Below the pieces are notes generated by a model. It was given only the letters and a program-made list of their open reading frames with translations, was not told the origin of the DNA and made no database searches. Positions 2,352-40,335 of a DNA stretch of 64,000 nucleotides are shown here, piece by piece. Numbering within the stretch: the first letter of the stretch is position 1; every line of letters begins with the position of its first letter. A program made the position numbers and the translations under genes. Source of the stretch: Escherichia coli (GTDB taxonomy: Bacteria; Pseudomonadota; Gammaproteobacteria; Enterobacterales; Enterobacteriaceae); NCBI RefSeq assembly GCF_965641715.1, contig NZ_OZ282453.1. One strand, 5' to 3'.

Positions 2352-2800
2352 AATTATAATAAATATTATTGTTGAATGTTATATTATTATTCCTGTGTGA
2401 TACATTGAGCAAAGGTGCATTCATCTTCGTCAAAGATATTATTAAATGCTGGTTTTGAAAAAAGTTCATCGGATAAGATATAGTCACGAAATAAGTATCT
2501 GCTAATATTTTGTGATTTCTTTTTCAGAACGTCGAACGGGATTTTCTTATTTAAGATATCAGAATCTTATGATTTGGGTAAAATTCTAAATAAATCAACA
2601 TGTCACTAAAATCATCATAGCCATTAGCTATTTCGGCTAAAATAGAGACTACATGTCTTCGGTCCATCTCACTTAAGGAGTGTAGTTCCGTTGTAAGTTT
2701 TTCCATAGCTTGCATTGCTAAATTTCGAACAAGGAATTTTCTGGTGGTAATCTCTAAAAAGATGGCATGGTTTACAATGATTTTTGTTTCCTTTTGATTA

Positions 2801-3295
2801 TTATGAACAACTATCCATGATTTCGTTTAAGAATGAAGAGAAATCACTAAACGAACTGAATATATTTTCTGTGCCAATATTATCTCTAATTTCAAAAAAG
2901 TTACTTTTAATGTCATAAGTAAATATTGAAATGCTATCATCCCCGATCACTAACCGTTCTTGTAGATCAGGGTTTATGAAATCATCATTATTTCTATAAA
3001 ATTCATTTACGGCAAAAAGGTTTTTAACTGAAGGTTCTGGAATCGAGAGGCTAAATAATCGCAATCCATTAACTTCGAATCCATCCATTGCTCTTAAAAA
3101 AGTAAGATAATCAGGTTGATTCTTAAAAAGAATACTAACTTCATTACATAACTTCTCCAGGCAATTAGTTGAATTAGAATTAAATTCTATTTGGATTATA
3201 CTTTCAATAAATGATTCCTTGAGCGGTGCTTCAAATGGATAGTCTAAATCATTCATCATTTTTATTAATTTGTTTATTTGGGTTTTAGTCATCAT
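2801..3295 (-). CDS. putative immunity protein for the upstream HNH-like toxin domain (position of K-12 yrhA)
   Basis: 164-aa acidic ORF; its ATG overlaps the stop of the toxin-domain ORF (ATGA overlap at 3292..3295); AT-rich codon usage like the neighbouring Hcp gene. Confidence 0.5.
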   Translation of the reverse strand: MMTKTQINKLIKMMNDLDYPFEAPLKESFIESIIQIEFNSNSTNCLEKLCNEVSILFKNQPDYLTFLRAMDGFEVNGLRLFSLSIPEPSVKNLFAVNEFYRNNDDFINPDLQERLVIGDDSISIFTYDIKSNFFEIRDNIGTENIFSSFSDFSSFLNEIMDSCS

Positions 3296-3678
3296 TTTGT
3301 GGGTTCCATAATATTTTTCATGGGAGGATAAATTGAGCCAGATGGAATGGCCCAGGGAGTGATTTTGCTTTCACCTACTAATATTCCCTTAGCTATTCGT
3401 GATTGCATGTTAGTAAAAACTTTATGATATGGTTCGTTTTCGATTAATACTAAATTTTCGAAATCATTAGTACCACCATCATCTAGAGATAGTTTATGGT
3501 GAACATTATAATTTAGAGGAACATAGCCCTTTCTCATTCTTAAAAGGTCTTCGGTGTTGAATCTTCCAGATGCTTCGGAGGTTTTTGCAAGTTTGATAAG
3601 AAAATTTTTTCTTACAGTTTTGTTAAACTCCTTTCGTAAGTTAGCTAAGTCTTTTGAAGGTCTCTTAATGTATATTAT
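3292..3678 (-). other. C-terminal HNH-like nuclease toxin domain of an Hcp-toxin fusion (yhhZ-like), in frame with the Hcp ORF but separated from it by one TAA
   Basis: Frame arithmetic: 4470-3537=933 (multiple of 3); the 47 codons between the TAA (3679..3681) and the ATG at 3535..3537 contain no stop and translate cleanly (IIYIKRPSKDLANLRKEFNKTV...); HNH-type motif NVHHKLSLDDGGTNDFENLVLIENEPYHK. Confidence 0.55.
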
Positions 3679-4470
3679 TTATATTATGTCTATGCCATCA
3701 AGAAGTTTTTGTTGATCTCTAAGTTTGCCTAAGTAACTATTTATTTCTGTATATGTATCAACTTTAGAACGCTTTGTTAAAAGAATAGATGCTGTTGCTA
3801 TCGCTATGCCCGCTGTTTTTTCATTTAGTATTTGATCATAGCCTTTGATTGCATCTCCACCCAGTTTTTCCGCAGTATCTCTGAATCCTTCAATGTTCCC
3901 ATTGTATACGCCACCAGCAGCAAGTAGCCTGCCAACAGCTTTGCTGTTTAACGTTTTGAAACGATTATTTGTTTGGTTTTTTGAATTTGGTAAAAACAAA
4001 CGGTTATAATTTTCAGGGAGTGCCAAATAGCTGAACTCGGTATTTGCGATAAGATGTTGACAGAGGATAAATTCATAACTAACAGTTATTGTTTCTGTAT
4101 CCAGTTGATTTTGAATGATCTGATGATGAATAGCCGATAAAAAAGCGCCTCTTAGTTGTGTATAATAATACTTTTCCCATCTACCAAATCTATTGATTCT
4201 ATAAAAGTCAAATTTCATAAATAATTGCTCATTATTGTTAATGGAATTAATAAGTAATGGAGTGCTTTTATCAATTAATTTACAAAATGTCATAGCCTGT
4301 AACTGTGAACCAAGCCCCGTATTAGTAATTCTATTTTCGAGTGAGAATGTAAATATTTCATTCTCATGCCCGCTCTGCCAGCGATTACCTATAGATTCAG
4401 TAGTCCCACAACCTGCGGAGATGCTTCCTTGTTGTTCTCCCGTTACTGTCAGATAAACAATATTACTCAT
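3679..4470 (-). CDS. yhhZ: Hcp (type VI secretion tube protein) domain with C-terminal extension; N-terminal part of a yhhZ-like Hcp-toxin fusion ending at an in-frame TAA
   Basis: N-terminus MSNIVYLTVTGEQQGSISAGCGTTESIGNRWQSGHENEIFTFS is Hcp-like; 263 codons to TAA at 3679..3681; ORFs 3679..4470 and 3292..3537 share one frame; combined length ~392 codons equals K-12 YhhZ as recalled. Confidence 0.7.
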   Translation of the reverse strand: MSNIVYLTVTGEQQGSISAGCGTTESIGNRWQSGHENEIFTFSLENRITNTGLGSQLQAMTFCKLIDKSTPLLINSINNNEQLFMKFDFYRINRFGRWEKYYYTQLRGAFLSAIHHQIIQNQLDTETITVSYEFILCQHLIANTEFSYLALPENYNRLFLPNSKNQTNNRFKTLNSKAVGRLLAAGGVYNGNIEGFRDTAEKLGGDAIKGYDQILNEKTAGIAIATASILLTKRSKVDTYTEINSYLGKLRDQQKLLDGIDII

Positions 4471-4706
4471 CCCTGAAAAGTCCTTTTATGGCATGCTATT
4501 TTATCAATGGCACTATTATGCTTGTTAATTGTTATTTATTTACTCCAGGAAATTGTAGGCGTATATATTAAAAAATAAAATATTACACTTTAGGAAGTAA
4601 TTATGAGGTAAGTCTCAATATATTTATTGGGAAAATAAATACATTAAAGGAAGGTATGCCGATTTTGAATGACACCCTTTTTCCATCTCAGAAAAAGGGC
4701 ACTATT

Positions 4707-5195
4707 TTACTTCACCCGCGCCATAAAATACGCATCAACATATTCACCATTACGTAATGCGTACTTCTTGCCAGTCCCTTCAATCTCAAAGCCGAATTTT
4801 TTATAGACCTTAATTGCTGGCGCGTTATCGACAAACACCGTTAGCTCAATACGATCTACCCGCAACCAGTTGTCGCACATTTCAATCATCTCTCGCATCA
4901 GGGCGCTGGCGACGCCGCGATTCTTCCAGCGGGCGTCGACACAGATACCAAAATCGGCAACATGACTGCGGCGTGGGCGCTGTTGCACGTCAATGGTGAG
5001 ATGGCCCACGACGTCTCCATCAATACAGGCGACGAGTTGCTTGATGCCGGGACGATTGGCGAGTCGCTCCTGCCACATATAATCGGAAGGATGAGGCACT
5101 TGTAGCGTGTTGTAATACACCTCCGGCTGGGCGTGAATCTGCCTGATGGCCTCGTAATCGCGCGTTTCAGCATGGCGTATCACTATCTCACTCAT
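4707..5195 (-). CDS. yhhY: GNAT-family N-acetyltransferase
   Basis: ORF track 4707..5273; likely start at the ATG 5193..5195 (MSEIVIRHAETRDYEAIRQIH...) preceded by GAGGA; 162 aa. Confidence 0.85.
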   Translation of the reverse strand: MSEIVIRHAETRDYEAIRQIHAQPEVYYNTLQVPHPSDYMWQERLANRPGIKQLVACIDGDVVGHLTIDVQQRPRRSHVADFGICVDARWKNRGVASALMREMIEMCDNWLRVDRIELTVFVDNAPAIKVYKKFGFEIEGTGKKYALRNGEYVDAYFMARVK

Positions 5196-5528
5196 TCCTT
5201 TGTCCTCTTTGGGGTAAATGTCCCTTTCAACATCATTGACTTTCGAATGCGAGTCAAATGCATTTTTTTGCAAAAAGTGTTGGACAAGTGCGAATGAGAA
5301 TGATTATTATTGTCTCGCGATCAGGAAGACCCTCGCGGAGAACCTGAAAGCACGACATTGCTCACATTGCTTCCAGTATTACTTAGCCAGCCGGGTGCTG
5401 GCTTTTTTTTTGATCTTTCGTTCTCAATTTATCCTCGGGAAGTGCTTGTGTTCGTTATGCGCACTCCAGTAGGAACCACGTCCGCTTTGCGCTAAGGTGT
5501 AAATAACCACCTTAAAAAGGACGAAATC

Positions 5529-6566
5529 ATGGTCATCAACTGCGCCTTTATTGGCTTCGGCAAAAGCACCACCCGTTACCATCTGCCGTATGTACTTAAC
5601 CGCAAGGATAGCTGGCATGTCGCGCATATTTTTCGCCGCCATGCAAAGCCGGAAGAACAAGCTCCCATTTACTCTCATATCCATTTCACCAGCGATCTCA
5701 ACGAAGTGCTAAACGATCCCGATGTTAAGCTGGTTGTTGTCTGCACCCATGCGGACAGCCACTTCGAGTACGCGAAGCGCGCGCTGGAAGCCGGGAAAAA
5801 TGTGCTGGTCGAAAAACCGTTCACTCCGACACTTGCGCAGGCGAAAGAGCTGTTTGCACTGGCGAAAAGCAAAGGGCTGACCGTCACGCCATATCAGAAT
5901 CGTCGCTTTGATTCCTGCTTCCTGACGGCGAAAAAAGCGATTGAAAGCGGCAAGCTGGGAGAGATTGTCGAAGTGGAAAGCCATTTTGACTATTACCGCC
6001 CGGTGGCAGAAACCAAACCTGGGCTGCCGCAGGATGGCGCGTTCTATGGCCTTGGTGTGCATACGATGGACCAGATTATTTCTCTGTTCGGTCGCCCGGA
6101 TAACGTCGCTTATGACATCCGCAGCCTGCGCAATAAAGCCAATCCTGACGATACTTTCGAAGCGCAACTGTTTTATGGCGATCTAAAAGCCATCGTCAAA
6201 ACCAGCCATCTGGTGAAAATCGATTATCCGAAATTTATCGTTCATGGTAAGAAAGGTTCGTTTATTAAATACGGTATCGACCAGCAGGAAACCAGCCTGA
6301 AGGCTAATATTATGCCGGGCGAACCGGGATTCGCAGCGGATGATTCGGTCGGTGTGCTGGAGTATGTCAATGACGAGGGCGTGACGGTCAGAGAAGAGAT
6401 GAAGCCGGAGATGGGCGATTACGGGCGCGTTTATGATGCGTTGTATCAAACCATCACCCACGGTGCGCCAAATTACGTCAAGGAATCTGAAGTTCTTACG
6501 AATATGGAAATCCTTGAACGCGGATTCGAGCAAGCCTCTCCCTCCACAGTGACTCTCGCGAAGTAA
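5529..6566 (+). CDS. yhhX: Gfo/Idh/MocA-family NAD(P)-dependent oxidoreductase
   Basis: 345-aa ORF; N-terminal Rossmann motif CAFIGFGKSTTRYHLP. Confidence 0.9.
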   Translation: MVINCAFIGFGKSTTRYHLPYVLNRKDSWHVAHIFRRHAKPEEQAPIYSHIHFTSDLNEVLNDPDVKLVVVCTHADSHFEYAKRALEAGKNVLVEKPFTPTLAQAKELFALAKSKGLTVTPYQNRRFDSCFLTAKKAIESGKLGEIVEVESHFDYYRPVAETKPGLPQDGAFYGLGVHTMDQIISLFGRPDNVAYDIRSLRNKANPDDTFEAQLFYGDLKAIVKTSHLVKIDYPKFIVHGKKGSFIKYGIDQQETSLKANIMPGEPGFAADDSVGVLEYVNDEGVTVREEMKPEMGDYGRVYDALYQTITHGAPNYVKESEVLTNMEILERGFEQASPSTVTLAK

Positions 6567-6688
6567 GTTTGATGGCCCCTCGAATAGTTCAATTTTTTTG
6601 AACAGAGGGGTCAATTTTCACCCTCTATCATCCCAGGCAGATCGGGTCCACACTAAGCCCATCGAAATCATTCAGGGGGCGAATACAA

Positions 6689-7384
6689 ATGATCTACTTA
6701 CGCAAAGCAAATGAACGTGGTCATGCAAATCATGGCTGGCTGGACTCCTGGCATACTTTCTCTTTTGCCAACTATTACGATCCGAACTTTATGGGCTTCT
6801 CCGCGCTGCGCGTGATTAACGACGACGTGATTGAAGCAGGGCAGGGCTTCGGCACTCACCCGCATAAAGATATGGAAATTTTGACCTACGTGCTGGAAGG
6901 TACTGTTGAGCACCAGGACAGCATGGGCAATAAAGAGCAGGTTCCGGCGGGCGAGTTCCAGATTATGAGTGCGGGTACGGGTATTCGTCACTCAGAGTAC
7001 AACCCAAGCAGCACTGAGCGTCTGCATCTGTATCAGATCTGGATCATGCCTGAAGAAAACGGTATTACGCCGCGTTATGAACAGCGTCGCTTCGATGCCG
7101 TACAGGGCAAACAGCTGGTGCTCTCGCCGGATGCGCGAGATGGTTCATTGAAAGTGCATCAGGATATGGAACTGTACCGCTGGGCGTTGCTGAAAGATGA
7201 GCAGTCGGTGCATCAGATTGCCGCTGAACGCCGCGTCTGGATCCAGGTGGTGAAAGGCAATGTCACCATTAACGGCGTGAAAGCCTCGACCAGCGATGGT
7301 CTGGCAATCTGGGATGAGCAGGCAATCTCCATCCATGCGGATAGCGACAGCGAAGTGTTACTGTTCGATCTGCCGTCGGTTTAA
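6689..7384 (+). CDS. yhhW: pirin-like cupin protein (quercetin 2,3-dioxygenase)
   Basis: 231-aa ORF; cupin metal-binding His motifs (HPHKDMEILTYVLEG...H). Confidence 0.9.
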   Translation: MIYLRKANERGHANHGWLDSWHTFSFANYYDPNFMGFSALRVINDDVIEAGQGFGTHPHKDMEILTYVLEGTVEHQDSMGNKEQVPAGEFQIMSAGTGIRHSEYNPSSTERLHLYQIWIMPEENGITPRYEQRRFDAVQGKQLVLSPDARDGSLKVHQDMELYRWALLKDEQSVHQIAAERRVWIQVVKGNVTINGVKASTSDGLAIWDEQAISIHADSDSEVLLFDLPSV

Positions 7385-7607
7385 AGCTCAACGGCATCTT
7401 TGAAGCCTGCCTTTTTGCAGGCTTCCTCGCTCGCTCCGGTCGCGTGCTGATGTACGCTTCCGGGGTTTTGCAGCGTCGTTAGCACAATGCGATGCAATTG
7501 ATTTAGTGTATATCTAATAATTGTAAACAAGCACTGTTTTCCCCGGGAAGGTTCTGATGCGTCCGTGTTAAACTAAGAGAATCTATCTCTTTTGTACCTT
7601 CAGGACG

Positions 7608-8603
7608 ATGAAAAAGAAAAGACCCGTACTTCAGGATGTGGCTGACCGTGTAGGCGTGACCAAAATGACGGTCAGCCGTTTTTTACGCAACCCGGAGCAG
7701 GTTTCCGTCGCTCTACGCGGCAAGATTGCCGCGGCTCTTGATGAACTGGGCTATATTCCCAATCGTGCGCCCGATATCCTCTCTAACGCCACCAGCCGGG
7801 CGATTGGCGTCCTGTTACCTTCTCTCACCAACCAGGTTTTCGCGGAAGTATTACGCGGAATCGAAAGCGTCACCGACGCGCACGGTTATCAGACCATGCT
7901 GGCGCACTACGGTTATAAACCGGAAATGGAGCAAGAACGTCTCGAATCCATGCTCTCATGGAATATCGACGGACTGATCCTCACCGAACGTACCCACACG
8001 CCGCGCACCTTAAAGATGATTGAAGTGGCGGGGATTCCCGTGGTGGAACTCATGGACAGCCAGTCGCCGTGCCTCGATATCGCCGTCGGTTTTGATAACT
8101 TTGAAGCGGCACGCCAGATGACCACCGCCATTATTGCTCGCGGGCATCGCCACATTGCCTATCTCGGCGCACGTCTCGACGAACGTACTATCATCAAACA
8201 GAAGGGATACGAACAGGCGATGCTGGATGCAGGCCTGGTGCCATATAGCGTGATGGTTGAGCAATCTTCTTCTTACTCTTCCGGTATTGAACTGATTCGC
8301 CAGGCGCGGCGGGAATATCCGCAGCTGGATGGCGTGTTCTGTACTAATGATGATCTGGCGGTCGGCGCGGCGTTTGAATGTCAGCGTCTGGGGTTAAAAG
8401 TTCCTGACGATATGGCGATTGCCGGTTTCCACGGTCATGACATTGGTCAGGTGATGGAGCCACGACTTGCGAGCGTGCTGACGCCGCGTGAGCGGATGGG
8501 CAGTATTGGCGCTGAACGCCTGCTGGCGCGTATTCGTGGCGAATCTGTGACACCGAAAATGTTAGATTTAGGTTTCACCTTGTCACCGGGCGGATCTATT
8601 TAA
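7608..8603 (+). CDS. gntR: LacI-family gluconate repressor
   Basis: 331-aa ORF; N-terminal HTH (LQDVADRVGVTKMTVSRFL) plus periplasmic-binding-like effector domain; precedes gntK-gntU. Confidence 0.95.
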   Translation: MKKKRPVLQDVADRVGVTKMTVSRFLRNPEQVSVALRGKIAAALDELGYIPNRAPDILSNATSRAIGVLLPSLTNQVFAEVLRGIESVTDAHGYQTMLAHYGYKPEMEQERLESMLSWNIDGLILTERTHTPRTLKMIEVAGIPVVELMDSQSPCLDIAVGFDNFEAARQMTTAIIARGHRHIAYLGARLDERTIIKQKGYEQAMLDAGLVPYSVMVEQSSSYSSGIELIRQARREYPQLDGVFCTNDDLAVGAAFECQRLGLKVPDDMAIAGFHGHDIGQVMEPRLASVLTPRERMGSIGAERLLARIRGESVTPKMLDLGFTLSPGGSI

Positions 8604-28547: not shown

Positions 28548-30053
28548 TTATGACGCCAGCGACAACTTCTGCTGCGTATATTCCACCAGCCACTGACTCA
28601 CACGAGATTGTTGATCCGCATTCAGCCACATGCCTTGTTTTGTGCGACGCCACAGGGCATCGTCGGCGCGGCGGACCCATTCGTGATCCACCAGGTATTT
28701 CAGTTCCGCTTCGTAGAACTCATGACCGAAATCCTCCCCGAGGTCGCTTATCGCCCCCGCATTGCCGAGCAGCAGCTCGCTGTTGCTGCCGTAAGTGCGT
28801 GCGTAATGACGCGCCAGCGATTCAGTCAGGAATGGATAGCGACGGCGCAGACGAGCGGCATAATCGTCGCGGTCGCCTTCAATGGCACCACCCGGTAGCA
28901 CGCTCTCTTTCGTCCACGCCGGGCCAATACCCTGATAATACGGCGTCAGTTTTTCCAGCGCATGTTCCGCCAGTTTGCGGTAGGTGGTCAGCTTACCGCC
29001 GAATACCGACAGCAGCGGTGCTTTGCCATTTTCATCATGAATATCAAGGGTGTAATCACGGGTAATAGCCTGCGGCGAGTCGGACTCATCATCACACAGC
29101 GGACGCACACCGGAGTAGGTCCAGACGATATCGTCACGGCTTAACTGCTTTTTAAAGTGCGTGTTATACACTTTCAGCAGGTAATTGATTTCACTCTCTT
29201 CAATCTTCACTGCTTTCGGATCACCTTTGTATTCCACATCGGTGGTGCCGATGATGGAAAACTCGTCCATCCACGGGATCACGAACACAATGCGTTTATC
29301 TTCGTTTTGCAGAATGTAGGCCTGCTTTTGGGTATGCACGCGCGGCACCACAATATGGCTGCCTTTGATCAGGCGAATGCCATAAGGCGAAGGCAGATGC
29401 ATCCCGTCGTCGAAGAACTGTTTCACCCACGGGCCGGTGGCGTTAACCAGGCCGCGCGCTTGCCAGCTATATTTTTTGCCGGTATCGATATCTTCCGCTT
29501 CCACAATCCACAGGCCGTTTTCGCGGCGAGCAGAGGTGGCGCGAGTCCGAGTAAGCACTTCGCCGCCTTTACGCACCACCATCTGGGCGTTGGCGAGTAC
29601 CAGACGGGCGTCGTCTACCCAACAGTCAGAATATTCGAATCCGCGCTTAATTTCCGGTTTTAACACTGAATTTGCGCCAAAACGCAAACCAGTTGATCCC
29701 GGCAGGCTGGTGCGTTTACCCAGATGATCGTACATAAACAGACCAATGCGAATCATCCACGCCGGGCGCAGATGCGGACGATGTGGCAGGCGAAAACGCA
29801 TCGGGAAGGCGATATGCGGGGCCATTTTCAGCAGCACTTCACGTTCAGCCAGCGCCTCGCTGACCAGGCGGAATTCATAGTGCTCAAGGTAGCGCAGGCC
29901 ACCGTGAATGAGTTTTGAACTGGCGGAAGAGGTCGCGCAAGCGAGATCCTGCGCCTCCAGCATCAGCACGGATAAACCGCGTCCAGCGGCGTCTGCCGCG
30001 ATACCAGCACCATTGATGCCGCCCCCTATCACAATCAGATCTTTGGTTTCCAT
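28548..30053 (-). CDS. glpD: aerobic glycerol-3-phosphate dehydrogenase (FAD)
   Basis: Frame of ORF 28548..30068; start METKDLIVIGGGINGAGIA (FAD-binding GxGxxG) at 30053; 501 aa. Confidence 0.95.
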   Translation of the reverse strand: METKDLIVIGGGINGAGIAADAAGRGLSVLMLEAQDLACATSSASSKLIHGGLRYLEHYEFRLVSEALAEREVLLKMAPHIAFPMRFRLPHRPHLRPAWMIRIGLFMYDHLGKRTSLPGSTGLRFGANSVLKPEIKRGFEYSDCWVDDARLVLANAQMVVRKGGEVLTRTRATSARRENGLWIVEAEDIDTGKKYSWQARGLVNATGPWVKQFFDDGMHLPSPYGIRLIKGSHIVVPRVHTQKQAYILQNEDKRIVFVIPWMDEFSIIGTTDVEYKGDPKAVKIEESEINYLLKVYNTHFKKQLSRDDIVWTYSGVRPLCDDESDSPQAITRDYTLDIHDENGKAPLLSVFGGKLTTYRKLAEHALEKLTPYYQGIGPAWTKESVLPGGAIEGDRDDYAARLRRRYPFLTESLARHYARTYGSNSELLLGNAGAISDLGEDFGHEFYEAELKYLVDHEWVRRADDALWRRTKQGMWLNADQQSRVSQWLVEYTQQKLSLAS

Positions 30054-30164
30054 GCTGCCCTCATTCACTTTCGTTAAAGCTCATAAATGTTCGTTATCGA
30101 ACATATTAGCAAAGAATCGCGCTTTAGGTAACATTGAAAAAACATTTTAGAGTGATATGTATAA

Positions 30165-30569
<405 letters not shown>

Positions 30570-30601
30570 CGCTTTATACTGTCCCCTTTTGTGTGGAATA
30601 A

Positions 30602-31444
<843 letters not shown>

Positions 31445-31460
31445 TTCCAGGGATTTATAA

Positions 31461-32219
31461 ATGAAACAAACACAACGTCACAACGGTATTATCGAACTGG
31501 TTAAACAGCAGGGTTATGTCAGTACCGAAGAGCTGGTAGAGCATTTCTCCGTCAGCCCGCAGACTATTCGCCGCGACCTCAATGAGCTGGCGGAGCAAAA
31601 CCTGATCCTGCGCCATCATGGCGGTGCGGCGCTGCCTTCCAGTTCGGTTAACACGCCGTGGCACGATCGTAAAGCCACCCAGACCGAAGAAAAAGAGCGC
31701 ATCGCCCGCAAAGTGGCGGAGCAAATCCCCAATGGCTCGACGCTGTTTATCGATATCGGCACCACGCCGGAAGCGGTGGCGCACGCGCTGCTCAATCACA
31801 GCAATTTGCGCATTGTCACCAACAATCTTAACGTTGCTAACACGCTGATGGTAAAAGAGGATTTCCGTATTATTCTCGCCGGTGGCGAATTACGCAGCCG
31901 CGATGGCGGGATCATTGGCGAAGCGACGCTCGATTTTATCTCCCAGTTCCGCCTTGATTTCGGCATTCTGGGGATCAGCGGCATCGATAGCGACGGCTCG
32001 CTGCTGGAGTTCGATTACCACGAAGTTCGCACCAAGCGCGCCATTATTGATAACTCGCGCCACGTTATGCTGGTGGTCGATCACTCGAAATTTGGCCGTA
32101 ACGCGATGGTCAATATGGGTAGCATCAGCATGGTAGATGCCGTCTACACCGACGCCCCGCCGCCAGTAAGCGTGATGCAGGTGCTGACGGACCACCATAT
32201 TCAACTGGAGCTGTGCTGA
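31461..32219 (+). CDS. glpR: DeoR-family glycerol-3-phosphate regulon repressor
   Basis: 252-aa ORF with N-terminal HTH (IIELVKQQGYVSTEELVEHFSVSPQTIRRDL); 3' end overlaps the convergent rtcR 3' end by 19 bp. Confidence 0.95.
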   Translation: MKQTQRHNGIIELVKQQGYVSTEELVEHFSVSPQTIRRDLNELAEQNLILRHHGGAALPSSSVNTPWHDRKATQTEEKERIARKVAEQIPNGSTLFIDIGTTPEAVAHALLNHSNLRIVTNNLNVANTLMVKEDFRIILAGGELRSRDGGIIGEATLDFISQFRLDFGILGISGIDSDGSLLEFDYHEVRTKRAIIDNSRHVMLVVDHSKFGRNAMVNMGSISMVDAVYTDAPPPVSVMQVLTDHHIQLELC

Positions 32220-33799
32220 TCCTGCACGGCTTCCCACGTCAGACCAAAACGCGCCAGGTATTTGCGTAGCCGATCCGCGTCATTGACGCTGGCTTTGCCC
32301 TGGCGCGAAACGTCAAAAAGCTGGCGTCCGGCTGCGGAAAGCGACTTTGCCTGGCGGCAGATTGCGATAACGTGTTCCAGTTGCATACGGTCGAAGAGAT
32401 CGATGTTTTCTGCCTCTGCGCCCAGCAACGCCGTAAGCGCGGAGGGGCGGCTCTCCTGCCAGTTATAGCGCAGACGGTTTATCTCATCTTCAACCACGTC
32501 CAGAGTAATGCGTCCGCTAGAGGCAAAGGTTGCCATTCGCGTGACGCTGGCAGAAAGCTCGCGAAAGTTACCGCGCCATGTTGCCTGGGGAGATGTCGCA
32601 AAGGCCAGCCAGGCGCGCCGCGCTTCGGTGTTAAAACGCACGCTGTCGCCGGTGAGTGAAGCGTGGCGCTCCACTTCATAATCCAGGTTAGGTTCAATAT
32701 CTTCCTGACGCTGGCGCAGCCCCGGCAGGGTGAAGGTCCAGAGATTGATCCGCGCGTATAGATCTTCGCGGAATTTGCCATCGGCAACCAGCTGGCGTAA
32801 ATCGCGCACCGTTCCGGCGATGAGCTGAAAATCACTGCTCACCTGGCGATCGCTGCCAAACGGATAAAAGGTTTTTTCTTCAATGGCTTTAAGCAGCATT
32901 GCCTGTTCGTCTGCGCCCAGTTCGCCAATCTCATCAAGAAACAACATTCCGCCGTTGGCGCTGCGTAATAATCCTTCACGAGATTCCCGCGCCCCGGTAA
33001 ACGCGCCTTTCACATGACCAAACAGCGTCGACATGGCGGTATCGCCGCGCAGGGTTGCGCAGTTCACTTCCACAAACGCGCCGCTAAACTGATGCCGCGC
33101 CTGTTTTAATTCAAATATACGTCGCGCCAGAAATGACTTGCCCGCACCGGTTGGGCCGTTTAGCAGGATCGGTGCGCGGGATTTAATCGCCACTTTTTCG
33201 ATCTGTTCAATCATGCGGTTGAAGTGCGGGTTACGCGTGGCAATGCCGGACTTAAGAAAATCAAGCGTTTGCTGGCGTTCCTCGGCAAAGCGGCTGGCGA
33301 TGGCGTTATAACGGCTTAAATCGAGATCGATAATCGTCACTTCACCTGGGCCGCGCGGCTGTTCTTTTTTGCGCGGAGGTGAAGATTGTATCAACCGGGC
33401 GGGCAGGTAACGCGCTTCCGCCAGCAGAAACCAGCAAATCTGCGCGACGTGGGTGCCGGTGGTGATGTGAATTAAATAGTCTTCTTTTTCTGGCTGAAAC
33501 TCGTAACCACGGGCGAAATCATGCAGGCAGGCGTAAACCTCTTCGAAATCCCACGGGTTATGCAGTTCAATCTCAACGCTCACCACTTCTGTTTCTGGCG
33601 AAACGCTGGCGATATCGCGTTTAAGCGTTTCAAATAGCGAGCGCGAGCGGGCGTCGTGCAATAATTCCAGTCGATCGATGACCAACGATTCTTGCTGGCA
33701 TAAACAGAGCGTCGGACGCCATTTTGACCAGCGCTGACTACCGCGCCCGGCATAATCCAGCACCGTTCCGACAAAGCCAAAAGCCACTTTTTTACGCAT
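32201..33799 (-). CDS. rtcR: sigma54-dependent transcriptional activator of the rtcBA operon
   Basis: Frame of ORF 32201..33967; start [18 protein letters not shown] at 33799; AAA+ sigma54-interaction motifs ([14 protein letters not shown]); 532 aa. Confidence 0.9.
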
Positions 33800-33985
33800 C
33801 TTAGATATCCTTATAAAAGACGATATTTCATTATCGGTAAATCGGCTTTGCGGGAAATCTCCGGTTACGGACGTAAAGATATAATCTTTTTTAAAACAAT
33901 GAATTAAAAAATTAATCTGCTTATTTAATTTTCTGGCACGACGGTTGCAATTATCAGGACATACCAACGAAAAGAGAAAAACAAA

Positions 33986-35212
33986 ATGAATTACGAATTA
34001 CTGACCACTGAAAATGCCCCGGTAAAAATGTGGACCAAAGGCGTGCCGGTAGAAGCCGATGCGCGTCAGCAACTTATTAATACGGCGAAGATGCCGTTTA
34101 TTTTCAAACATATTGCGGTAATGCCTGATGTACACTTGGGTAAAGGTTCCACCATTGGTAGCGTGATCCCGACCAAAGGGGCGATTATTCCGGCGGCGGT
34201 GGGCGTGGATATTGGCTGTGGAATGAACGCGCTGCGTACCGCGTTAACGGCGGCAGATCTGCCTGAAAACCTGGCGGAGCTGCGTCAGGCGATTGAAACT
34301 GCGGTGCCGCACGGGCGTACCACTGGCCGTTGTAAACGTGATAAAGGCGCATGGGAAAACCCGCCTGTTAACGTCGATGCGAAATGGGCTGAGCTGGAGG
34401 CCGGTTATCAGTGGTTAACGCAAAAATATCCGCGTTTCCTTAACACTAACAACTATAAACACCTGGGAACGCTGGGAACGGGTAACCACTTTATTGAAAT
34501 CTGCCTTGATGGGTCGGACCTGGTGTGGATTATGCTGCACTCCGGTTCACGCGGAATTGGTAACGCCATCGGGACTTACTTTATCGATCTGGCGCAAAAA
34601 GAGATGCAGGAAACGCTTGAAACATTGCCGTCGCGTGATCTGGCGTACTTTATGGAAGGTACGGAATACTTTGATGATTACCTGAAAGCCGTGGCCTGGG
34701 CGCAGCTTTTTGCCAGCCTTAACCGCGATGTGATGATGGAAAACGTAGTAACGGCGTTGCAGAGCATTACGCAGAAAACGGTCAGACAGCCACAAACGCT
34801 GGCGATGGAAGAGATCAACTGTCACCACAACTATGTGCAAAAAGAACAGCACTTTGGTGAAGAGATCTACGTGACGCGTAAAGGCGCGGTGTCTGCGCGT
34901 GCTGGTCAATATGGAATTATTCCAGGGTCGATGGGAGCGAAAAGCTTTATCGTCCGTGGGCTGGGAAATGAAGAGTCGTTCTGTTCATGCAGCCACGGTG
35001 CCGGGCGGGTAATGAGCCGTACTAAAGCGAAAAAACTGTTCAGCGTGGAAGATCAAATTCGTGCCACCGCGCATGTGGAATGCCGTAAAGATGCCGAAGT
35101 GATCGACGAAATCCCGATGGCGTATAAAGATATTGATGCGGTGATGGCGGCACAAAGCGATCTGGTGGAAGTTATCTATACCCTGCGTCAGGTGGTGTGC
35201 GTAAAAGGATAA
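33986..35212 (+). CDS. rtcB: RNA-splicing ligase RtcB
   Basis: 408-aa ORF (MNYELLTTENAPVKMWTKGVP...), intact. Confidence 0.95.
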   Translation: MNYELLTTENAPVKMWTKGVPVEADARQQLINTAKMPFIFKHIAVMPDVHLGKGSTIGSVIPTKGAIIPAAVGVDIGCGMNALRTALTAADLPENLAELRQAIETAVPHGRTTGRCKRDKGAWENPPVNVDAKWAELEAGYQWLTQKYPRFLNTNNYKHLGTLGTGNHFIEICLDGSDLVWIMLHSGSRGIGNAIGTYFIDLAQKEMQETLETLPSRDLAYFMEGTEYFDDYLKAVAWAQLFASLNRDVMMENVVTALQSITQKTVRQPQTLAMEEINCHHNYVQKEQHFGEEIYVTRKGAVSARAGQYGIIPGSMGAKSFIVRGLGNEESFCSCSHGAGRVMSRTKAKKLFSVEDQIRATAHVECRKDAEVIDEIPMAYKDIDAVMAAQSDLVEVIYTLRQVVCVKG

Positions 35213-37578
<2,366 letters not shown>

Positions 37579-37593
37579 TGATATAAAGATGTA

Positions 37594-37619
37594 AGCCGGA
37601 TCCAATGCATTATCCGGCT
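37594..37619. terminator. hairpin between convergent rtcA and malT (likely bidirectional terminator)
   Basis: AGCCGGAT (37594..37601) / ATCCGGCT (37612..37619), 10-nt loop; 5 nt past the malT stop. Confidence 0.45.
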
Positions 37620-37623
37620 AAAC

Positions 37624-40335
<2,712 letters not shown>

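Follow-up and report, generated by a model that had tools for sequence, protein, structure and literature searches.

Convergent genes sharing nucleotides at their 3' ends are a known feature of the E. coli genome. Seventy-five convergent CDS overlaps have been counted in the species (Huvet & Stumpf, PMC4161906), and overlaps of this kind are conventionally put down to 3' extension after the loss or shift of a stop codon (PMC2716372). At the transcript level, 276 of 370 convergent E. coli operons (~75%) have overlapping 3' ends, whether or not the coding regions overlap, and the mean overlap is 286 nt (Conway et al. 2014, PMC4161252). Transcripts of convergent genes may be ended by hairpins working in both directions (Ju et al. 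2019; bioRxiv 10.1101/2022.10.23.513370). Collision-assisted bidirectional terminators are described in the preprint as requiring a hairpin and as Rho-independent. Untranslated and antisense RNAs are terminated by Rho (Peters et al. 2012 as cited in PMC7815308; Adams et al. 2021, PMC7815308).

The junction analysed in this work is formed by the glpR and rtcR genes of E. coli, and lies in a contiguous stretch of 64,000 nucleotides, hereafter the window. Like the convergent overlapping pairs catalogued earlier (PMC4161906, PMC2716372), the two genes reside on opposite strands, are both real, and share a short 3' segment. As in those pairs, one partner adds only a non-conserved C-terminal extension, and the length of the overlap drifts between lineages via indels or stop shifts. 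No substantive difference from that set was found. The glpR/rtcR overlap is indeed one of the about 75 counted in E. coli, and as such is annotated in the K-12 reference genome. We regard it, with a probability of roughly 0.85, as ordinary and known from existing annotation: two regulator genes with no relation to each other, packed closely, overlap at their tails, and the overlap does not serve regulation.

The glpR/rtcR junction

The order of genes in the window, glpD (-), glpE, glpG, glpR (+), rtcR (-), rtcB, rtcA (+) and malT (-), is the same as in K-12. The gene names glpR and rtcR, originally assigned from the open reading frames, are right, since both products match full-length equivalog profiles. 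The glpR gene (31461..32219, + strand) is the last gene of glpEGR, and encodes the DeoR-family repressor of the sn-glycerol-3-phosphate regulon. Its identity is supported by the open reading frame, by the RefSeq CDS of identical or near-identical genomes, and by the NCBIfam equivalog NF008154, matched over residues 1-252 of 252 with 551.9 bits (cutoff 331). Pfam domains complete the picture, as the protein carries the N-terminal DeoR helix-turn-helix (HTH_DeoR, PF08220, residues 6-61) and the C-terminal DeoRC sensor domain (PF00455, residues 74-231), the layout expected of GlpR. The upstream gene in the operon is glpG (30614..31444, + strand), coding for a rhomboid protease (NF008155 equivalog, 1-276/276). 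Two promoters within glpG affect the transcription of glpR, as stated in PMC5442614, which cites Yang & Larson 1998.

The rtcR gene (32201..33799, - strand) encodes the sigma-54-dependent activator of rtcBA, a protein of 532 aa. The open reading frame starting at ATG 33799 corresponds to the K-12 RefSeq annotation, and its product matches the NCBIfam equivalog NF038308 (residues 1-527 of 532, 851.2 bits, cutoff 650) and includes the RtcR N-terminal domain (PF06956, residues 2-185), the Sigma54_activat domain (PF00158, residues 187-354) and AAA_lid_14. The start at ATG 33799 is both annotated and supported by homology; the TTG at 33967, reported in the list of open reading frames, makes the protein too long (588 aa), and has no influence on the 3' end of the gene. 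Family profile, N-terminal and sigma-54 AAA+ domains are accompanied by the expected genomic context, with rtcBA transcribed divergently from a -24/-12 promoter. The consensus of sigma-54 promoters is TGGCAC-N5-TTGCA, and the motif TGGCACGACGGTTGCA, read directly at 33935..33950 (+ strand), 36 nt upstream of the rtcB start, fits it. The rtcB gene (33986..35212, + strand) was recognized as an open reading frame and by profile search. No RNA family was detected by searching Rfam (E <= 1) across positions 29500..38000.

An IS4-family element of 1337 bp (35867..37203) interrupts the rtcA gene of the window after about codon 218. It contains a transposase ORF (36037..37155, - strand), is bounded by the terminal inverted repeats CATAAGCGCTAACTTAAGGGTTG, and is flanked by the 12-bp target duplication GGGAGTTTTCCC at 35855-66 and 37204-15. 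The element resembles IS186. A junction like that created by this insertion occurs in 2 of 5426 complete E. coli genomes.

The two coding regions share the 19-nt stretch TCAACTGGAGCTGTGCTGA at 32201..32219, as directly read in the sequence. The letters from 32200 to 32219, t-TCA-ACT-GGA-GCT-GTG-CTG-A, accommodate both stop codons. The glpR stop is the TGA at 32217..32219, closing the + strand ORF of 252 aa, and the rtcR stop is the TCA at 32201..32203, the reverse complement of TGA, on the - strand. GlpR ends with ...HHIQLELC; within the overlap, the + strand reads (I)QLELC* and the - strand (D)QHSSS*. These are, thus, opposite-strand protein-coding genes with 3' nucleotides in common, and the 19-nt overlap with its two stops, as originally described, is confirmed.

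A misplaced stop codon, or a sequencing error in either gene, could in principle simulate an overlap, and misassigned stops had been indicated as the condition able to refute the original prediction. Nothing in favor of an artefact was found. Both stops were read directly, full-length profile matches and RefSeq ends agree in indicating that both genes are real and end where assigned, and identical ends recur in thousands of independent assemblies, as well as in other genera. The probability that the overlap is an annotation artefact is virtually negligible.

How the overlap arose can be plausibly described in simple terms. The rtcR frame, having no stop of its own before glpR, runs for 16 nt plus the stop codon into the antisense of the last glpR codons, and ends at the first in-frame stop met there, the TCA hidden inside the glpR codons ATT-CAA. 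Such an arrangement would cost almost nothing, the C-terminus of GlpR being the constrained partner, and the end of RtcR a dispensable-looking tail that follows the conserved C-terminal core. The length of the overlap was compared with a chance model, in which an incoming ORF devoid of its own stop continues, on the antisense strand, into the tail of each long ORF of the window. The expected overlap has a median of 71 nt (quartiles 32-162), and reaches at least 19 nt in 83% of cases. Had rtcR entered glpR in either of the remaining antisense frames, the first stop would have set the overlap at 95 or 330 nt. The 19-nt overlap is no more than chance would give.

The overlap in E. coli and in other Enterobacteriaceae

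The original prediction anticipated the same arrangement in K-12, and this is the case. In the RefSeq annotation of BW25113, glpR and rtcR span 4062..4820 and 4802..6400 of the extracted locus, and overlap by 19 nt (4802..4820). In MG1655 (NC_000913.3), rtcR resides at 3558268..3559866 and glpR at 3559848..3560605, again with a 19-nt overlap (3559848..3559866). The glpR gene of the MG1655 reference is an annotated pseudogene, due to a 1-nt deletion at nt 151 (corresponding to position 31611 of the window), and the window gene is intact and encodes 252 aa. A 601-nt query spanning the junction was found in 5424 of the 5426 complete E. coli genomes, and a 60-nt query centred on the overlap in 5421.

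The rtc locus appears to have been repeatedly struck in E. coli by IS insertions and deletions. A recurrent deletion, exemplified by strain E302, eliminates rtcB and most of the locus, leaving the 3'-terminal ~399 nt of rtcR fused to the 3'-terminal ~420 nt of rtcA. In E302 the fusion covers positions 4802..5588 of the extracted locus, and corresponds approximately to window positions 32201..32600 joined to the end of rtcA. The fusion junction was identified in 565 of 5426 complete genomes (~10%), in which both glpR and its overlap with rtcR are kept. As read from the annotation, these genomes would have lost the promoter-proximal ~1200 nt of rtcR. In strain ETEC1701 (positions 2562..4687 of its locus) a deletion spans the glpR/rtcR junction; glpR is annotated as a pseudogene with its C-terminal end missing, and what remains of it is overlapped by the annotated rtcR (3116..4687). 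In strain DSM 103246 (4802..7738 of its locus), which is 100% identical to the window over 31900..32500, rtcR is split by an IS4-like element of the ISVsa5 family.

The comparison was extended to 80 glpR loci, retrieved by a GlpR scan of species-representative genomes of Enterobacteriaceae. The GlpR end QLELC* is found in all of them, with the exception of two Pseudocitrobacter loci, in which the protein is extended by 2 residues. The distribution of rtcR next to glpR is uneven. A convergent rtcR gene was found in the scan only in Escherichia whittamii, Escherichia sp. E1V33, E. albertii, Klebsiella oxytoca, K. spallanzanii, Superficieibacter electus and Intestinirhabdus alba. The overlap measures 19 nt in the three Escherichia and in the two Klebsiella species. 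It is reduced to 4 nt in S. electus, where the two stops share the sequence TTAG, and extends to 35 nt in I. alba, where a short indel just past the glpR stop moves the rtcR frame to a later stop. The RtcR tails vary past the conserved core, reading AVQDQHSSS in Escherichia, MLKDQHSSS in K. oxytoca, SVKEMAN in S. electus and AISTAPAEYGDR in I. alba. Since the tail varies beyond the conserved part of the protein, and the family profile NF038308 stops at residue 527 of 532, short of the tail, the RtcR residues encoded in the overlap belong to a non-conserved tail. By comparison of the sequences, the tail found in Escherichia and Klebsiella corresponds to the antisense reading of the invariant last codons of glpR.

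These data bear on the hypothesis that the overlap has been selected as a dual-coding segment, either because the RtcR tail QHSSS is functional, or because the overlap guards rtcR from deletion; in the latter version, the end of rtcR is tied to glpR, which nearly all strains retain. Both the 19-nt overlap and the DQHSSS sequence are identical in Escherichia, K. oxytoca and K. spallanzanii, though the RtcR proteins are overall only ~83% identical, and the rtc deletions halt short of the junction, leaving a 3' remnant of rtcR, in E. coli as well as in a second bacterium described below. However, the invariant GlpR C-terminus, read in antisense, fully explains the conservation of the tail, and the kept remnants show selection on glpR only. 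Moreover, the tails of S. electus and I. alba are unrelated and their overlaps differ in length, yet RtcR is otherwise conserved, and the profile of the family does not cover the tail. Selection for dual coding is decidedly improbable.

The remnant mentioned above was detected in Enterobacteriaceae bacterium UBA5654 (positions 3260..3457 of its locus), in the interval separating glpR from the next convergent ORF, in a genome with no rtcR gene at that site. It consists of 110 nt, 76% identical to E. coli rtcR (E = 4e-19), and matches RtcR residues 487-531 by tblastn. The similarity indicates that the rtc locus was probably lost in the past. Among the candidate species loci, that of UBA5654 is the only one with a clear rtcR scar. 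Putative scars next to glpR in K. michiganensis and K. grimontii were discarded, the similarity being too short (14 nt, or none).

Downstream of glpR, the other ~70 species have a spacer, mostly 6-120 nt long, which hosts a strong hairpin, often with a T run; as an example, AAAGGGCGCTGATGAAGCGCCCTTTTT is found in Kluyvera and AAACCGCCTTGCGGCGGTTTTT in Kosakonia. Beyond the spacer, most of these loci carry a convergent malT gene.

Termination of transcription at and beyond the junction

The original prediction held that the junction leaves no room for independent terminators. This proved correct insofar as the site lacks a spacer and shows no convincing intrinsic terminator; it did not hold for termination farther on, as in K-12 a region of Rho-dependent termination has been located 334 nt past the glpR stop. 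A consensus scan for intrinsic terminators over 31000..34200 retrieved 6 sites versus 4.6 +/- 2.2 in shuffled sequences, none of which lies at the junction. The most stable hairpin that sliding RNAfold detects in the 150 nt after the glpR stop (+65..+108) has an energy of -17.8 kcal/mol, near the coding background, and no T run. It was rejected as a terminator for lack of the T run, and in view of the median of -15.0 kcal/mol measured as background in random 150-nt pieces of the window. By the same measure, the most stable 44-nt hairpin at most 150 nt downstream of the glpR stop, the medians are -21.3 kcal/mol in the 71 loci with a spacer and -17.0 kcal/mol in the nine loci in which rtcR is adjacent (Mann-Whitney p = 2.5e-4). 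In E. coli, a hairpin-forming repeat resides in the short spacer between rtcA and malT. The rtc cassette (rtcR-rtcB-rtcA) thus sits between the glpR stop and the hairpin on the malT side, and leaves glpR without an intergenic hairpin of its own. According to this view, glpR would have lost its hairpin to the interposed cassette. As to the order of events, the cassette may have been present early and repeatedly lost, or may have been acquired.

Evidence for an alternative way of ending glpR transcripts comes from published data. A Rho termination region mapped at MG1655 position 3559514, on the - strand of that genome, which is the glpR strand, has been classed as antisense to rtcR (Adams et al. 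2021, PMC7815308, Supplementary file 2). In 800-nt windows, 154 reads upstream and 29 downstream of the region were counted without bicyclomycin (BCM), versus 153 and 256 with BCM; the Rho score is 8.89 (p = 2.7e-27) (PMC7815308). Position 3559514 aligns to position 32553 of the window, inside the antisense of rtcR. The location in the window strain is a projection from K-12 MG1655, in which the 1-nt deletion in glpR may stop translation early and alter the loading of Rho, compared with an intact glpR mRNA. For the glpR strand, read-through increasing under Rho inhibition is therefore documented in K-12. The corresponding segment of the window, 32220..32553 (+ strand), its end being set by the projected Rho region, would be transcribed as untranslated glpR read-through RNA, antisense to the last ~111 codons of rtcR.

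With Rho-terminated untranslated and antisense RNAs, glpR shares a BCM-sensitive read-through. Regions located more than 50 nt after a stop codon and antisense to a gene account for 51.5% of the Rho regions in PMC7815308, and the glpR region falls in that class. The differences are that no recognizable C>G rut composition was found in the window sequence downstream of the stops, and that termination was measured in K-12 MG1655. The C/G ratio in 75-nt windows varies from 0.69 to 1.37 between the glpR stop and +350, and no C-rich, G-poor signature exceeding the window background was found downstream of either stop (highest C/G 1.37 versus a background 90th percentile of 1.55). Between 3559300 and 3560499, Adams et al. 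(PMC7815308) list no Term-seq 3' ends on either strand, and report neither Rho regions nor 3' ends on the rtcR strand. In the supplements of SMRT-Cappable-seq, b3423 is found only in the per-gene count table, rtcR (b3422) is absent, and no number beginning with 35593-35598 occurs. The absence of rtcR is consistent with low expression.

The convergent arrangement is a trait that glpR/rtcR share with bidirectional hairpin terminators (Ju et al. 2019; bioRxiv 10.1101/2022.10.23.513370), and relatives in which glpR abuts malT carry intergenic hairpins, just as members of that class. The glpR/rtcR junction differs by having neither a spacer nor a strong hairpin, and by being Rho-dependent on the glpR strand. 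A collision-type or bidirectional intrinsic terminator at the junction was consequently discarded, as there is no hairpin to support it, and the Rho score obtained on the glpR strand contrasts with a Rho-independent class. In the mechanism we favor, glpR transcripts would continue into the rtcR antisense and be stopped by Rho after roughly 300 nt, and the weak rtcR transcript would likewise be ended by Rho inside the antisense of glpR.

The glp and rtc regulons

The original prediction also held that, by implication of the overlap, the glp and rtc regulons are linked, either by transcriptional interference or by antisense coupling. Overlap of 3' transcript ends is the norm for convergent operons, being found in about three quarters of them in E. 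coli, and therefore has by itself no implication of regulation. In this respect the glpR-strand transcript, which enters the antisense of rtcR for ~330 nt, close to the 286-nt mean, behaves like the operons surveyed in PMC4161252. Transcript overlap has been seen for the glpR strand only, as the K-12 read-through extending to ~334 nt past the stop.

Coupling remains to be weighed as a hypothesis in its own right. The convergent glpEGR and rtcR transcripts would be forced to overlap, and collisions of RNA polymerases, or the formation of RNA duplexes, would allow each regulator to depress the other, linking glycerol-3-phosphate control to RNA-repair control. In K-12, transcription of the glpR strand does reach at least ~330 nt into the rtcR antisense, and proceeds much farther when Rho is inhibited, as shown by the rise of the downstream reads from 29 to 256; no hairpin terminator lies at the junction, and antisense transcription can tune expression in E. 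coli synthetic systems (PMC4731013). Yet, such overlaps are not specific to glpR/rtcR. Furthermore, both genes are regulators expressed at low level, as suggested by the glpR-strand count of 154 reads in 800 nt and by the absence of b3422 from the SMRT-Cappable-seq supplements, and collisions should therefore be rare. The 565 E. coli genomes retaining only the last ~399 nt of rtcR keep an intact glpR, rtcA is IS-broken in the window itself, and the length of the overlap is not conserved between genera.

Nor does the overlapped part of rtcR carry a trace of additional constraint. Identity at fourfold sites in the last 111 rtcR codons versus the rest of the gene was 0.73/0.74, 0.78/0.83 and 0.75/0.74 in comparisons within Escherichia, and 0.39-0.57 versus 0.44-0.54 in comparisons with other genera, with no consistent excess in either set; the test is a weak one, each comparison including ~40-50 sites. 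Taken together, the survival of glpR in genomes deprived of most of rtcR and the lack of extra synonymous conservation do not sustain the claimed coupling, which we consider improbable. The same two observations are indirect signs, both negative, on a reciprocal effect of glpR and rtcR. Excludons, a term applied to divergent operons in PMC4161252, are pairs in which each partner has been demonstrated to affect the expression of the other. For glpR and rtcR no effect of this type is known or indicated, nor is a functional relation between them established. The six papers found to name both glpR and rtcR contain no discussion of the overlap, or of a link between the genes.

A narrower regulatory role may be envisaged for the Rho-limited glpR read-through RNA, which, being antisense to the last ~110 rtcR codons, could act as a conditional cis-antisense brake on rtcR. 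This is highly improbable. If true, a decrease in Rho activity, or an increase in glpEGR transcription, would spread antisense RNA across rtcR and lower RtcR, and the inducibility of the RNA-repair operon would be tied to the status of Rho or to transcription of the glp operon. The locus would be moderately interesting for the regulation of Rtc RNA repair only if the read-through RNA controls RtcR.

The interpretation of the overlap as a by-product of gene packing makes the useful outcome of this analysis a negative one: both stop codons are correctly placed, no special account of the overlap is called for, and the claimed regulatory coupling is unsupported. Still, the locus provides a small example of how a cassette inserted, or retained, flush against the stop of a neighbouring gene alters termination: the hairpin terminator that follows glpR in relatives is replaced, in E. 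coli, by Rho-dependent termination in the antisense of the neighbour.
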